This document shows, piece by piece, positions 38,237-43,957 of a DNA stretch of 64,000 nt. Both the position numbers and the translations under genes were made by a program. Source of the stretch: a virus; IMG/VR virus record IMGVR_UViG_3300032431_000008, positions 74-64,073 of that record. One strand, 5' to 3'. How positions within the stretch are numbered: position 1 is the first letter of the stretch; each line of letters begins with the position of its first letter. Below the pieces are notes generated by a model. The model did not search any database. It saw nothing but the letters and a program-made list of their open reading frames with translations, and had not been told where the DNA came from.

Positions 38237-39066
38237 GCAAAACTGATGTAAGCCATTTCTACCGGCTGTTACCCACGGGTAAAGTCGAGTCCGCCTACGG
38301 TGCTTCGATCAAGGAAGCACGGGCAGGCGGATTATTCGCCTCGGCAACCATGGCCCTTAAGATGGTGGCCAATGTCGGGTTGGACATTTGGATCAGAGCA
38401 AACCTGTTGGACGCGATGGTGAACAACCCGCGCAATCCTGCGATGGAAAGTATCGAGGACTACAAGCAACGCATAGATGAGCTAAGCGAGGTTAAACGCA
38501 CCAACGCTGCTGAGTTCGGCACGGCCCTACACAACGCCCTAGAGCACTACCCGCTGCCCTGCCAGGACGACAAGGTGGCCCTTCACTACGCAGCCTGCGT
38601 CCCTTGGTTAAAAGCCAACGTGGCAAGCGTGATTGGCAGTGAGCTTATGCTGGCAGATGAACAGATAGGCTTTGCGGGCAAGACGGACTTGGTGTTTTTC
38701 GACAATGCAGGGGTGCCCTTCATCGTGGACTTTAAGACTACCGGCTTTAAGAAAACCAAGACTGGCAAGTGGGCTAAGCCTGCGTTTTACCAGTCATGGG
38801 TAAGACAGTTGGCGTTCTACGCCCGGTCCTACCAGAAGAAGTACGGCGGGCCATTGCCAAGGGTTATCTCGCTAGCCATTAACTCGGGTGAGCCATGCGA
38901 GCCGGTTGCGCGGTTCTGGACCGTGGAAGAGCAGGAGCAGGGCATGAACGAGTTCCTTTGCGCGGCCTACCTGTATTCCTGCGACCGGGACCATTGGCCT
39001 GCGGGTCTGTGGGAGTTGAAGGAGCAACGAGGTGGGTCCGTGTCAGTGGACGTGACAATCGTTTAA
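38233..39066 (+). CDS. PD-(D/E)XK exonuclease
   Basis: GTALHNALE, FAGKTDL, IVDFKT, QLAFY. Confidence 0.9.
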   Translation: MSKTDVSHFYRLLPTGKVESAYGASIKEARAGGLFASATMALKMVANVGLDIWIRANLLDAMVNNPRNPAMESIEDYKQRIDELSEVKRTNAAEFGTALHNALEHYPLPCQDDKVALHYAACVPWLKANVASVIGSELMLADEQIGFAGKTDLVFFDNAGVPFIVDFKTTGFKKTKTGKWAKPAFYQSWVRQLAFYARSYQKKYGGPLPRVISLAINSGEPCEPVARFWTVEEQEQGMNEFLCAAYLYSCDRDHWPAGLWELKEQRGGSVSVDVTIV

Positions 39067-39071
39067 CCGCC

Positions 39072-39371
39072 GTGCCTGCCCCATCCCTTATCCCTGCGCT
39101 CAAGATTGAGCAACCCTATGACTCCGCTACGCGCTGGCTGATACCTAGCAAGAGCGAGGGCGGGGCTGCTTACTTGGTTGACCTAGCTGAAAATGAGGGG
39201 TGGGGTTCATGTCAATGTATGTGGTGCCAAACTTCCTACGCCCCGCTCTTAAAGAAGGGGGTGGTGCCTATCAGGACGTGCTCGCATATCACCGATGCGC
39301 GGAAGAAGTTCGCGCTGTGGGCAGTGAACGCCTTCGACAAGCAGGATAAGAATAATCGTGAGCAGGACTAG
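39072..39371 (+). CDS. SWIM-like zinc finger protein
   Basis: YLVDL...SCQCMWC...CSHI. Confidence 0.65.
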   Translation: MPAPSLIPALKIEQPYDSATRWLIPSKSEGGAAYLVDLAENEGWGSCQCMWCQTSYAPLLKKGVVPIRTCSHITDARKKFALWAVNAFDKQDKNNREQD

Positions 39372-39409
39372 ACAAGAATTTCTGTCAGTAACCTAAAACA
39401 AAACCAACA

Positions 39410-39616
39410 ATGAAAACCATTATCGACGGCTCTACGCTCCTCGTTCTCGTATTATTCCAAGTCACGCTTGCAATCTGCATGGTGACTGCATGGTGTGTTA
39501 ACTTCTTCAAGCTCACGCAATGTGACTTCCAAGCCCCGTATAAGGGCGAGGCTATCCACGCAGTGGGGATTATCCCGCCGTTCGCGTTGGTGACGGTATG
39601 GTTCAACGCAAAGTAA
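39410..39616 (+). CDS. Small membrane protein
   Basis: Two hydrophobic segments; CDFQAPYKGEAIH. Confidence 0.7.
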   Translation: MKTIIDGSTLLVLVLFQVTLAICMVTAWCVNFFKLTQCDFQAPYKGEAIHAVGIIPPFALVTVWFNAK

Positions 39617-39619
39617 GCC

Positions 39620-39677
39620 ATGAACCCAAACGAAAAACCTGCCGCTGAAATGGCTTCTCTGCATCGCCTGGTTAGCG
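39620..39677 (-). mobile_element. attC left half (R''-L''), truncated
   Basis: Minus strand CGCTAAC-CAGGC-GATGCAGA-GAAGCC; 54/56 identical to 39982-40037. Confidence 0.75.
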
Positions 39678-39940
39678 GGCGTGCTTTTATTTATTGGCTT
39701 TTTATCTACCAGAAATGGCCGATAAAGCCCCTAGCCAAGAATCTGTGGGCGCTTTGGTATGCGATTAAAGATTTGGCGTGCGCTCTCTGGAAACTGGCGG
39801 TGATACCGTTCGCACCCGTAGCTTGCGCGCTCGCCATGCTCGCCGACGCAAAGATTCGCGCACAGGTAATAGAGATGCACGCCAGCCGCGCAACGCCGCG
39901 TAAGACCGCCGACATTATCGGCACAATTTCATATCGCTAA
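39620..39940 (+). CDS. Cassette 1 ORF (hydrophobic), antisense to attC
   Basis: Stop TAA lies within CGCTAAC; N-terminus shared with 39982. Confidence 0.65.
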   Translation: MNPNEKPAAEMASLHRLVSGRAFIYWLFIYQKWPIKPLAKNLWALWYAIKDLACALWKLAVIPFAPVACALAMLADAKIRAQVIEMHASRATPRKTADIIGTISYR

Positions 39941-40039
39941 CAAAACAGATCAGAGAGCCAACCCCCAACCCTAGAATAACTATGAACCCAAACGAAAAAC
40001 CTGCCGCTCAAATGGCTTCTCTGCATCGCATGGTTAGGC
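39935..40039 (-). mobile_element. Integron attC site (105 bp)
   Basis: R'' GCCTAAC +5 + L'' GATGCAGA ... L' TCTGATC +6 + R' GTTAGCG; two extrahelical bases. Confidence 0.88.
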
Positions 40040-40326
40040 ACGGTGTATTTTCGGAATTGAAGTGTGATTGCCCGCATCGAAAGGACTGGCGAAATAATGC
40101 GGGCGGCGACATGTCCGACTGCACTCTGCACGACTCGGGAAATCTGCCGCCTTGCATACCGGAAATCTGCCCACTGTTTAACAGCGACGACCCCAAAGGC
40201 GATCACGACAATATGCGGACGGAAGAGGAAGTGGAGGGAACATGGCTTCCGCCTAACAATCGCAGTCAGCGAGCCGTGAACCCCGCTTCGACAAGCAAAA
40301 GCGACGAGCATACGGCTTCGCTGTAG
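39982..40326 (+). CDS. Cassette 2 ORF (Cys-rich), antisense to attC
   Basis: Starts in the loop of one attC and ends in the L box of the next. Confidence 0.6.
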   Translation: MNPNEKPAAQMASLHRMVRHGVFSELKCDCPHRKDWRNNAGGDMSDCTLHDSGNLPPCIPEICPLFNSDDPKGDHDNMRTEEEVEGTWLPPNNRSQRAVNPASTSKSDEHTASL

Positions 40327-40339
40327 TGCTTGGTTGGGC
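40251..40339 (-). mobile_element. Integron attC site (89 bp)
   Basis: R'' GCCCAAC +5 + L'' ACTACAGC-GAAGCCGT ... ACGGCTC-L' GCTGACT +6 + R' GTTAGGC. Confidence 0.85.
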
Positions 40340-40363
40340 TCCGTAATTCCGAAATAAAAAACC

Positions 40364-40678
40364 ATGACTACATACCAAATACGCAACGCCCAGCTCGACG
40401 GCATCTACATTGACTTCGTAGATGAACAAGTAGCCGCCCACTATTGGCGCGGAAATATCGAAAATTGCAGCGACACCGACTCCCGCAAGGGTGCCGTTAT
40501 GGGCCGCTACACCCGTGAAAGCGAAGCCGAGGCAGACCGCGCGCGCCTCGACTGGCTCGATGGAAACAGGAGTGCGGCGCTCTCAGCGAGACGATTCATC
40601 CGCGACGTTATCGACGACCACCGCAAGCTCAGGCTTAGCGAGTTCGTGCAGCTTTTGCCTCTGCCCAACAAGGAGTAG
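40364..40678 (+). CDS. Cassette 3 ORF
   Basis: Bounded by GTTGGGC (40333) and GCCCAAC (40663). Confidence 0.65.
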   Translation: MTTYQIRNAQLDGIYIDFVDEQVAAHYWRGNIENCSDTDSRKGAVMGRYTRESEAEADRARLDWLDGNRSAALSARRFIRDVIDDHRKLRLSEFVQLLPLPNKE

Positions 40679-40734
40679 CCGTAAATCTTTCCACCTATCC
40701 CGCGAAAAAGTCCACCGTCACCTGTTCTCACCCC

Positions 40735-41070
40735 ATGAAACGCACCCCCATTAAGAAAGTAAAAAGCAAGAGGGCCAAGGAATTGCGCGAGTATTCCAAG
40801 CTACGCGAAGCCTACCTTGCTGCCCACCCCCATTGCCAAGCGACGATACGGCTGAATGGGCTGAACGAGGCGGAGGTGATTGAGCGTCACGGGCATTATG
40901 GCACTGGCTTTATGGTGCCACTGGCCACGGAGATTCACCACGTAGGCAAGCGATACGGTTCCCGGTTAAACGATACGGCAAAGTGGCTGGCCGTGTGCCG
41001 GACCATGCACATAGCTATCGAGCAGGATAAGACCTGGGCTCGGACGAATGGCCTGCTTGACAACTACTGA
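40735..41070 (+). CDS. Small HNH-fold protein
   Basis: HPHCQ...ATEIHH...WLAVCRTMH. Confidence 0.7.
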   Translation: MKRTPIKKVKSKRAKELREYSKLREAYLAAHPHCQATIRLNGLNEAEVIERHGHYGTGFMVPLATEIHHVGKRYGSRLNDTAKWLAVCRTMHIAIEQDKTWARTNGLLDNY

Positions 41071-41096
41071 GCAGGGTAGCAGGTTCGAGGTGAACC

Positions 41097-41357
41097 ATGA
41101 AACAACAGCCTAGACCGACCCGGAAACAGTTTATGAAGCGCGTCCAAGTGGACATTGCAAAGCTTGAGCAGGACGCGGCGGTGCCCCGCATGATGGCAGA
41201 AGCTTTGTGCTGGCACTTTGAGCTTAGCTCCGACCGCATTGGCGAGATTGTAAATGCGTATCTTGGATGGATAGAAGCTGGCGGTAAGCCGGTGGAGCGG
41301 GTGAATGAACAAGACCTTCCAGTAATCCATGGAGTCGTATGCCCGCCGCTCGTTTAA
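41097..41357 (+). CDS. Hypothetical protein
   Basis: ORF track. Confidence 0.6.
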   Translation: MKQQPRPTRKQFMKRVQVDIAKLEQDAAVPRMMAEALCWHFELSSDRIGEIVNAYLGWIEAGGKPVERVNEQDLPVIHGVVCPPLV

Positions 41358-41777
41358 CCAGTGGCCAACTCGAAAAAGTCTTGTCCCGTAGTGGCTACGC
41401 TATTACAGGCGGCACTGTTGCCAAGCCATGCCTACCCCGTGAAGGTAGTAATACCGATCCGTTGCCCGAGTTGGAATGCTATCTTGACGGCGGGGCATTG
41501 GCAAAGGGCGAAGATAAAAAAGCAAGTGCAGGCCGCTTTCTTGTCAGGGTTAAAGTCTTTCGGAAGCGATTCATTGACCCCGATAACGTCAGCCTTAAAT
41601 ACGCAATTGACTGCCTACGTTACGGAAGCATTTTGCCGGATGATAGAGCAGAAGACATTAAGCTCGAAATCGAGGAGCAAATCAAAGTCAAAACCGACGC
41701 AGAAGAAAGAATTGAAATCGAAATCTACGGGCCTGATTCCGTGGAAGCCAAGCAAGCGAACCAAAGGTAAACCATGA
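41339..41777 (+). CDS. RusA-like Holliday junction resolvase spread over two overlapping frames
   Basis: Frame 41339: RKRFIDPDNVSLKYAIDCL...PDD; frame 41361: IPIRCPSWN...HWQRAKIKK. Confidence 0.7.
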
Positions 41778-41977
41778 GCATCCATATTGTCCCACGATGC
41801 GACAGGATTGAGCACACCCCTTGCGGCAGTTGCTGCAATGCCTTTACGGATGAGGAAGGGATAGTAAACCACCATAGCGCAGATAAGCGGGAACAATTTG
41901 AGCGCGTTGGAATACGCAGCAAAGGGTGGGAGATACGCATGTGCTTTGATGACGAAGTAAAATACGATTGGGAGTAA
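41774..41977 (+). CDS. Small His/Cys-rich phage protein
   Basis: HIVP..D.IEH...C.C...VNHHSADKRE. Confidence 0.65.
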   Translation: MSIHIVPRCDRIEHTPCGSCCNAFTDEEGIVNHHSADKREQFERVGIRSKGWEIRMCFDDEVKYDWE

Positions 41978-41983
41978 CAATTT

Positions 41984-42436
41984 ATGAGCGCAATATATGC
42001 AGTCCAAAGGACAACGGATCTTGGTTCAGTGGAGTGCCAGGAGTTCCTAAGAACTAACCGCTATTCCAAGCGCGGGTTTAGGACGCGCAAGTATTCCATT
42101 CTGCAACTTGACCAATCGGTTAAACACGCCGCTACCCACGGGTATGCTGCCGCGCAAGAGGTGACAGGCGTAAGCATACACAGTATCAAGAAGCACGCGC
42201 TGTCGATAAATCGCCGTGGCAAGGACTCGGCGCAGGTTGCGCGTGAGTTTGTGGGCCGCAAGTATGAGGCGCGCCAACTTACCTATGCCATTGAGCGGGC
42301 CATAAAGCTGCAACGGGCTGGGGCTGGCTCCATGAACAAGTGCCTAGAGAAGGCGGCGGGGCTTTGCGGTGTGAGCTACGCTTACCTGCGGGTGATCTAC
42401 TCGAAGGAGTTGGTGCCGTTTAACACCAACCCGTAA
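41984..42436 (+). CDS. Putative HTH protein
   Basis: YAAAQEVTGVSIHSIKKH. Confidence 0.55.
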   Translation: MSAIYAVQRTTDLGSVECQEFLRTNRYSKRGFRTRKYSILQLDQSVKHAATHGYAAAQEVTGVSIHSIKKHALSINRRGKDSAQVAREFVGRKYEARQLTYAIERAIKLQRAGAGSMNKCLEKAAGLCGVSYAYLRVIYSKELVPFNTNP

Positions 42437-43913: not shown

Positions 43914-43957
43914 AAAACAAAAAGCCCACCGTAGGGCGTCGAAGGCTACGGTGGGCT
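43914..43957 (-). terminator. Intrinsic terminator / attenuator upstream of 43864
   Basis: 12-bp stem AGCCCACCGTAG/CTACGGTGGGCT followed by a U-tract on the minus strand. Confidence 0.75.

Follow-up and report, generated by a model that had tools for sequence, protein, structure and literature searches.

Why does a tailed phage without an integrase carry a row of segments that end like integron gene cassettes? The question is raised by the region around 39620–40680 of a stretch of viral DNA of 64 000 nucleotides, here called the window, which is nearly all of the 64 108-bp virus record IMGVR_UViG_3300032431_000008 of IMG/VR (classed as linear, with an estimated completeness of 93%). The phage is uncultured and from fresh water. 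An earlier note on the window, made from its letters only, had read this region as an array of cassettes bounded by attC sites. We find that the array is a genuine, small, and partly decayed cluster of attC sites lacking an integron integrase (CALIN), of the type found in the bacterial family Opitutaceae. In our view, the cassettes of this short array were probably joined by a recombinase of the IntI type, with the integrase-less tailed phage borrowing the IntI of its host in trans.

The earlier note listed six 7-mers, and all are found exactly where it placed them, as three complementary pairs: GTTAGCG (39671–39677) and CGCTAAC (39935–39941), GTTAGGC (40033–40039) and GCCTAAC (40251–40257), and GTTGGGC (40333–40339) and GCCCAAC (40663–40669). 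GTTAGCG deviates from the strict GTTRRRY pattern at its last two positions. The two strict GTTRRRY/complement pairs form a chain, and first-order Markov shuffling of the window gave such a chain of two in 2 of 300 shuffles, the mean number of strict box pairs being 1.9 per shuffle, both strands combined. Complementary core and inverse-core ends within one cassette are the footprint of a former circle joined at G|TT, and we placed the cassette boundaries by this G|TT rule of integron cassettes. Cassette 1 (39672–40033) then consists of TTAGCG, its body, attC site 1, and a G. Cassette 2 (40034–40333) is the sole one between two complete attC sites, and cassette 3 (40334–40669) has the lone box GCCCAAC as its far end. 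The GC content of the three is 53–56%. The two ends of a cassette are complementary at 7/7 positions in all three cassettes, with three different box sequences, and the two boxes of a site at 5/7 positions in site 1 and 6/7 in site 2. In each cassette, the first TTRRRY is exactly complementary to the box at the other end of that cassette, which argues that the cassettes were once circles joined at G|TT; the enzyme that joined them would have been an IntI-type recombinase.

An attC site is an imperfect hairpin with an R box, an unpaired spacer (5 nt on one side and 6 on the other), and an L box. It has extrahelical bases on one arm only, with a variable terminal part above, and its total length is about 57–141 nt. 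This layout is seen in both complete sites of the window, site 1 at 39935–40039 (105 nt) and site 2, the best formed, at 40251–40339 (89 nt), with the extra bases on the right arm of the plus strand. The terminal boxes of the RYYYAAC…GTTRRRY form are GCCTAAC…GTTGGGC in site 2 and CGCTAAC…GTTAGGC in site 1. The minus-strand geometry proposed in the earlier note, R''-5-L''(8)…L'(7)-6-R', was reproduced by folding and by alignment to two covariance models (described below), and the same folds and alignments show the extra base at position 4 of L'' and the second bulge in the GAAGCC/GGCTC stem that it had described. Three positions of the L box differ between sites 1 and 2, and two of the three changes are compensated on the other arm. 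Site 2 has a fold of −19 kcal/mol, with z = −2.0.

A 24-nt motif from the right arm occurs in three copies on the plus strand, at 39652, 40014, and 40314, while 0.01 copies are expected from shuffles. The first copy lies in a third, incomplete site, half-site 0 (39620–39677, plus strand), which has part of the loop, the right arm, and the R-type box GTTAGCG (39671–39677), with the left arm missing. The half-site, also claimed earlier, is real, as 39620–39675 matches the right half of site 1 (39982–40037) at 54 of 56 nt. A repeat finder proposed a tandem period of 362 bp for these copies; this was rejected because the third copy of the motif is 61 nt out of register.

To which attC family do these sites belong? 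A scan with the right-arm motif of the window, with one genome per species, gave eight places, five of them in metagenome-assembled genomes (MAGs) of Verrucomicrobiota or Planctomycetota. At the contig end of an Opitutaceae MAG (locus L008), there are six sites of 98–115 nt, spaced 416–919 bp, all bounded by GCCTAAC and GTTAGGC; they share 40 consensus pairs, 17 of which have compensatory changes. A covariance model, R1, was built from these six sites only, with no sequence from the window. Its top two matches in the window are at 40251–40339 (29.5 bits, E = 5e-5) and 39936–40039 (22.1 bits, E = 4e-3), and the third has E = 1.4. The best match of R1 outside the attC sites, on both strands (E = 1.4 and 2.4), is a GC-rich perfect hairpin at 43924–43956, which was rejected as an attC site and is an ordinary terminator-like palindrome.

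The L008 contig stops on the side where intI would be, and no match to the integron integrase model at E = 1e-20 or better, and none over the cut-off, was found in that MAG. The integron integrase family TIGR02249 is, however, found over its curated cut-off in 83 of the 201 genomes of the same Opitutaceae family, and R1 places arrays upstream of intI, and without exception on its coding strand, in all six Opitutaceae regions fetched. A second model, R2, was built from 31 sites next to integron-integrase genes in five Opitutaceae genomes, again with no window sequence. On the plus strand, R2 matches 40251–40339 with 37.7 bits (E = 4e-7) and 39935–40039 with 23.9 bits (E = 1e-3), and its best match elsewhere in the 64 kb has E = 1.3. 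The scores on the minus strand are lower, 18.5 bits for site 2 and 20.5 bits for site 1. Half-site 0, taken as a whole site, is not significant with R2 (10.7 bits, E = 2.4). Taxon-specific attC covariance models have been used before to trace cassettes to their source taxa (Ghaly et al. 2021, PMC8352920), and the same approach is taken here. Thus, the attC reading of the earlier note holds: the covariance-model check that it had suggested, run with two taxon-specific models built without the window sequence, singles out both sites with E-values from 4e-7 to 4e-3. It had also guessed rightly that the attC family would be found in Opitutae, as the same family stands beside IntI in six of six Opitutaceae arrays examined.

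The models also identify the strand. In three host arrays (L008, L027, and L029), the longest, cassette-filling open reading frames (ORFs) are mostly opposite to the model sense. Because the model sense is that of the intI coding strand and the cassette-filling ORFs are mostly on the other strand, the model sense is the bottom strand of attC. For the sites in the window, the recombinogenic bottom strand is the plus strand. The surrounding phage genes have the same sense, and this strand is also the G-rich one. Read on the top strand, that is, on the minus strand of the window, the order is a lone G|TTGGGC junction next to an HNH-like gene, cassette 3, site 2, cassette 2, site 1, cassette 1, and half-site 0, a site without its L' and R' half. 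The region from 40663 to 40780 gave no fold and no match to R1 or R2, so that no attC arms were found beyond the lone box. A bare G|TTGGGC junction of this kind is the trace that would be expected if a cassette circle had been inserted into a non-att site.

Related sites were also noticed across phyla. Four attC-like sites (L002:5354–5446, L004:6577–6669, L007:894–986, and L009:1763–1860) from genomes of Planctomycetota, Verrucomicrobiaceae, Limnocylindria, and Gemmataceae share the arms plus a conserved central stretch. No integron integrase over the cut-off was found in those of these genomes that were checked (all except the Limnocylindria MAG), and the Gemmataceae chromosome (8.8 Mb) lacks any match with an E-value of 1e-20 or below. 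In the Planctomycetota MAG, an Acido-Lenti-1 RNA (RF01687, 45.5 bits, over the gathering score) at L002:7794–7839 is about 1 kb away from two attC-like sites.

Could the phage move these cassettes itself? Profile searches of the whole 64.1-kb record found no tyrosine recombinase (TIGR02249, PF00589) and no serine recombinase (PF00239), and the same searches were positive in control genomes. This bears out the claim that the phage encodes no tyrosine recombinase. The locus is not a complete integron, as there is no IntI or other tyrosine recombinase in the record; attI and Pc were not searched for. It has two complete attC sites 211 nt apart, and a CALIN is defined as a cluster of at least two attC sites without an integron integrase (Cury et al. 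2016, as used in PMC9892861). Since the phage has no recombinase and IntI is common in Opitutaceae with the same attC family, any exchange would be carried out by the host IntI in trans. We consider it likely that host IntI acts, or has recently acted, on the phage sites. The basis for this is the complementarity of the boxes within each cassette, the presence of another cassette in the closest relative, and the replacement of the middle cassette in the source metagenome. The host of the phage is probably a freshwater Opitutaceae bacterium. An attC type that belongs to one bacterial family gives an uncultured phage a host, independently of CRISPR spacers or tRNAs.

What do the cassettes encode? 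ORF1 (P0001, 106 aa) is at 39620–39940 on the plus strand and ends with a TAA within the CGCTAAC box. ORF2 (P0002, 114 aa), at 39982–40326 on the plus strand, begins with an ATG within the site 1 loop, extends over cassette 2, and has its stop, a TAG, in the right arm of site 2. ORF3 (P0003, 104 aa), at 40364–40678 on the plus strand, has its own A-rich leader, with the ATG 25 nt past the box. ORF1 and ORF2 both start at an ATG in an attC loop and have 19 attC-encoded residues in common, those of ORF1 coming from half-site 0. The loop and right arm of attC would thus provide two ORFs with the start codon and the first 19 residues, and site 2 would provide a stop. The position of the ORF2 stop in the arm of site 2, as TAG or TAA, also ends plus-strand ORFs in two related loci (L012 and L065).

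The codon-usage score per codon is +0.17 to +0.20 for ORF1, similar to those of the HNH and RusA-like genes of the phage and compared with −0.07 for the best minus-strand ORF, and +0.17 for ORF3. The longest ORF of each of the three window cassettes runs along the bottom strand of attC, opposite to the arrangement in bacterial cassettes, and codon usage supports this for ORF1 and ORF3. A canonical cassette, whose ORF is on the top strand of attC and precedes the attC of the same cassette, is not present in the window; the cassette with a 197-aa gene in L012 and L071, discussed below, and most host-array cassettes are of this kind. Searches of P0001–P0003 against Pfam and PHROGs gave nothing, and no confident fold was obtained, with low confidence for the ESM Atlas models of P0001 and P0003. 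The cassette ORFs are presumably expressed: lying on the bottom strand, they would be read along with the phage early genes. The inverted genes, with start codons taken from attC sites, are a hint that the phage has adapted the cassette format to its own transcription.

Population data come from the Logan contigs of the probable source run, which is the sole run that holds the phage; these are assembled contigs and not reads. A 23.5-kb contig at depth 15 leads without differences from phage genes through cassettes 1 and 2 to site 2, and a 9.9-kb contig, also at depth 15 and without differences, leads from site 2 through cassette 3 to the HNH gene and beyond. The two meet in site 2, where the assembly graph forks. 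A 248-nt contig with a depth of 3.3 joins 40008–40045 to 40247–40276, and between them, the 201 nt of the cassette 2 body (40046–40246) are replaced by 180 different letters. In two further contigs, site-2-like arms are attached to other sequence. One may ask whether the array is simply an assembly chimera, in which host integron DNA was fused to phage DNA at a shared repeat. In the independent Logan assembly of this run, the break at site 2 and the other contigs that share the arms of this site would fit a chimera. Nevertheless, the two long contigs, at the same depth, tie the array to phage genes on each side without differences, and relatives from two other samples have homologous half-sites in the same slot. 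We find a chimera hardly credible.

These relatives show what else can occupy the slot. The closest (L012) has 88% nucleotide identity to the window up to 39369. It has the center and right arm of site 2 (62 nt, 87%), and after GTTAGGC, it holds another, AT-rich cassette (42% GC) with a 197-aa gene in the canonical orientation, then GCCTAAC, a left arm resembling that of site 2, and the HNH gene. The same arrangement is seen in another sample (L071), and homologs of the 197-aa gene begin 11 nt after attC matches in two other contigs. The right breakpoint between the window and L012 is a few bases past the box. The earlier note had suggested that relatives be compared for differences at G|TT: a different cassette follows GTTAGGC in L012 and L071, but the left breakpoint lies elsewhere, as described below. 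In three other relatives (L001, L069, and L070), there is no attC site in the slot and one small ORF is present instead.

It was also noticed that the single cassette of L012/L071 is flanked by two half attC sites whose outer breakpoints (L012:786–794 and L012:1497–1508) share a 9-nt stretch of the attC center, GCCCCGACA. Their position would fit a cassette circle that was opened within the loop of the hairpin.

A related lineage (L061 and L065, with P0005 67% identical) has four complete attC sites of 25–52 bits, on the plus strand, the phage sense strand. Its arrays are on the far side of the HNH gene (L065:1277–2683 and L061:6191–7349) and also contain half-sites. All of the called genes at these arrays, including a DUF551 gene, are on the plus strand. 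In L065, exact circle-footprint complementarity is found at one junction only. In L063, which is nearly identical to L061, a 24-nt insertion within a cassette gene (L063:6148–6171) carries a GCCTAAC box plus spacer, and the attC after it is 32 nt shorter than in L061.

Are the sites then attC lookalikes of the phage's own? They might be RNA-processing or terminator hairpins on the early transcript, or boundary repeats shuffled by the phage exonuclease, HNH, and RusA-like proteins, in the manner of the PeSL elements, repeated stem-loops at which phages are able to shuffle small genes (PMC2839356). The sites, in the window and in L061/L065 alike, are all on the sense strand of the early genes, so that they would be transcribed as hairpins, and the arrays flank the HNH gene in both lineages. 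However, the sites match, end to end and strand-specifically, models made only from bacterial sites adjacent to intI, and the conserved parts are the boxes that IntI binds. No Rfam family was found in 38500–42000 at E up to 10, nor at the sites in bacterial loci, and no T run follows the hairpins. A lookalike of this kind is therefore very improbable.

The strict right-arm motif of the window has no exact match in IMG/VR. A looser pattern of the family is found in 28 IMG/VR stretches, several of them as arrays and some near phage genes, and the strand of the ORFs by a crude longest-ORF test is ambiguous in most. At least one of these (L059), with a GC content of about 72% at its sites, resembles host DNA. 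An IMG/VR contig with at least five attC sites of the family (L055:3014–5377) has a DnaB-like helicase, 50% identical to that of the window, whose gene is split into two parts separated by about 1 kb. The split may be due to an intein or an inserted element.

A more serious alternative is that the array is a relic. A piece of an Opitutaceae array, or a circle opened in the attC loop, would have been captured by illegitimate or microhomology recombination, the sites would be decaying without activity of IntI, and the differences between relatives would be phage mosaicism. Several features agree with a relic. Both outer sites of the array are halves, both sites of L012/L071 are halves as well, with outer breakpoints in the same stretch of the attC center, and the ORFs run through the sites. 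The GC content and codon usage of the window cassettes are phage-like, suggesting long residence, and the slot is hyperplastic even in relatives without any attC. The weak folding of site 1, given below, points in the same direction. A relic does not readily account for the perfect box complementarity within three of three cassettes with three different box sequences, or for same-family sites, all on the phage sense strand, at two slots in two lineages of the phage group. Furthermore, it is the cassette between two complete sites that has a replacement variant in the source sample. Finally, host cassettes are mostly the other way round, and a random piece of a host array would not yield three inverted genes. 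On balance, we think a relic unlikely.

Thus, cassettes joined by an IntI-type recombinase, with host IntI working in trans, remain the reading that we prefer. The following points weigh against it. Site 1 folds weakly (−7.1 kcal/mol, z = −0.3) around an unstructured A-rich loop of 52 nt, so that the folding check proposed in the earlier note came out well for site 2 and poorly for site 1. The extrahelical bases are T or C plus T, and not the G plus T usual in studied attC sites. The R2 strand preference of site 1 is small (23.9 vs 20.5 bits), and the chain that led to the models started from the window motif. Both outer ends of the array are incomplete, so that cassettes 1 and 3 are not excisable now and at most cassette 2 could be. 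The left breakpoint between the window and L012 is in the center of site 2 and not at a GTT box. L061 and L063 are identical until about 40 nt into a cassette gene and then 93–95% alike; a box-based cassette exchange was rejected for this difference, the pattern fitting homologous exchange. The short variant contigs of the source run share only 30–38 nt of attC arm with the phage and could come from a host array or another phage, and no recombination event was directly observed in the assembled contigs of that run. ORF2 has a codon score of about 0 on the plus strand, one minus frame is also open, and its coding status is uncertain. No homologs were found for the three cassette ORFs, P0001 and P0003 having been searched among 5.8 billion proteins.

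If host IntI does recombine the phage sites, it would act on the folded bottom strand, which is the phage sense strand and the G-rich strand. The GC skew is positive in every 2-kb bin of the window, including where genes are on the minus strand; it peaks, at 0.23–0.31, at 44–60 kb, where the minus-strand genes lie. Since the skew stays positive across minus-strand genes, it tracks the DNA strand and not transcription, and this suggests one-directional replication. If the G-rich strand is the template of the lagging strand, as in bacteria, the bottom strands would be in the orientation that favors folding and excision. Most sedentary integrons have the opposite, stabilizing orientation (PMC5371416). 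Tentatively, we can imagine a phage-adapted pool of small bottom-strand cassettes that circulates among integrase-less Opitutaceae phages by way of host IntI. In these cassettes, the attC loops would be remodeled into translation starts, and the arms would give an N-terminal peptide or a stop. The recombinogenic strand would be the G-rich strand, taken as the more single-stranded one. Such a pool is possible, but we would not call it probable.

The array lies among the early recombination genes, within their module, in this tailed phage without an integrase. The proteins of the window include a DnaB-like helicase, a virion protein, and a weak terminase match, and the genes around the array are those of a PD-(D/E)XK exonuclease, the HNH-like protein, and a RusA-like resolvase. 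A conserved phage gene, P0005 (39069–39371, plus strand), flanks the variable slot on the left and has homologs in all relatives at 66–99% amino-acid identity, and the nucleotide similarity of the window to L010 and L012 stops at 39369–39381. It is followed by a small ORF from the ORF list, P0004 (39410–39616, plus strand), whose 68-aa translation is hydrophobic and which abuts half-site 0; it is not present in the relatives, L012 and L010 having other sequence there, and its PHROG match is only weak. The right flank is the HNH-like gene (40735–41070, plus strand), with weak PHROG HNH matches and conserved in L001 and L012. The whole variable slot lies between the two arms of a perfect inverted repeat of 12 nt (39058–39069 and 40963–40974; ATCGTTTAACCG and its complement), and a 10-nt direct copy is at 41350–41359, at the start of the RusA-like gene. 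As a functional border, this repeat was treated as chance, with about 0.2 expected by chance and both arms in conserved coding sequence.

Why does such a small array matter? Integrase-less phages of a little-studied phylum carry the recombination sites of host integrons, in more than one lineage and in more than one slot. If the host integrase acts on these sites, the phages gain a site-specific way of swapping small accessory genes, both among themselves and with the integrons of bacteria. Bacterial integrons are now known as stores of anti-phage defense cassettes (bioRxiv 10.1101/2024.07.02.601686 and 10.1101/2024.07.02.601719).

How does the array compare with known systems? The earlier note took cassette arrays to be not well described for tailed phages, and this is out of date, as CALINs have been found in virulent and temperate tailed phages, together with IntI1 assays, by Qi, Rajabal, Ghaly, Tetu, and Gillings (2023, Front Microbiol; PMC9892861), who saw five of six phage attC sites recombine with attI1 under IntI1. 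The array resembles theirs in having at least two attC sites without an integrase in a tailed phage, in that most cassettes are of unknown function, and in the proposed capture from, or exchange with, bacterial integrons. It differs in that it belongs to an uncultured freshwater phage, has the attC type of Opitutaceae chromosomal integrons, and is known from sequence alone. Furthermore, all three of its ORFs are on the bottom strand, with start and stop codons supplied by the sites. The text of Qi et al. has no mention of Verrucomicrobia or of inverted genes and describes same-direction arrays as the typical bacterial structure. Thus, CALINs in phages are known already, and what is added here is the Opitutaceae-type attC and the inverted genes, which are not described in that work.

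With the sedentary chromosomal integrons, such as those with the VCRs of Vibrio (PMC8352920), the array has in common that the sequence and structure of its sites are those of one bacterial family and are recognized by a taxon-specific covariance model. It differs from them in having no IntI, two complete sites only, inverted genes, and a phage as its replicon. Insertion of cassettes by IntI outside att sites, at attG (consensus GWT plus CRGM), has been described in bacterial chromosomes, where it gives single attC sites lacking an integrase (SALINs) and small CALINs (Loot et al., bioRxiv 10.1101/2022.09.11.507474). Like an attG insertion, the array ends on the HNH side in a bare G|TT junction with no attC arms beyond, whereas the far partner junction has been lost, because half-site 0 is truncated, and the work of Loot et al. 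is on bacterial chromosomes. The PeSL cassettes of T4-type phages (Arbiol et al. 2010, PMC2839356; Comeau et al. 2014, PMC4122927) are similar in that repeated stem-loops bound small ORFans in hyperplastic regions and mark where relatives differ. By contrast, the PeSLs are promoter-plus-terminator motifs that are recombined by homology, whereas the sites of the array described here belong to a bacterial attC family with IntI-binding boxes.

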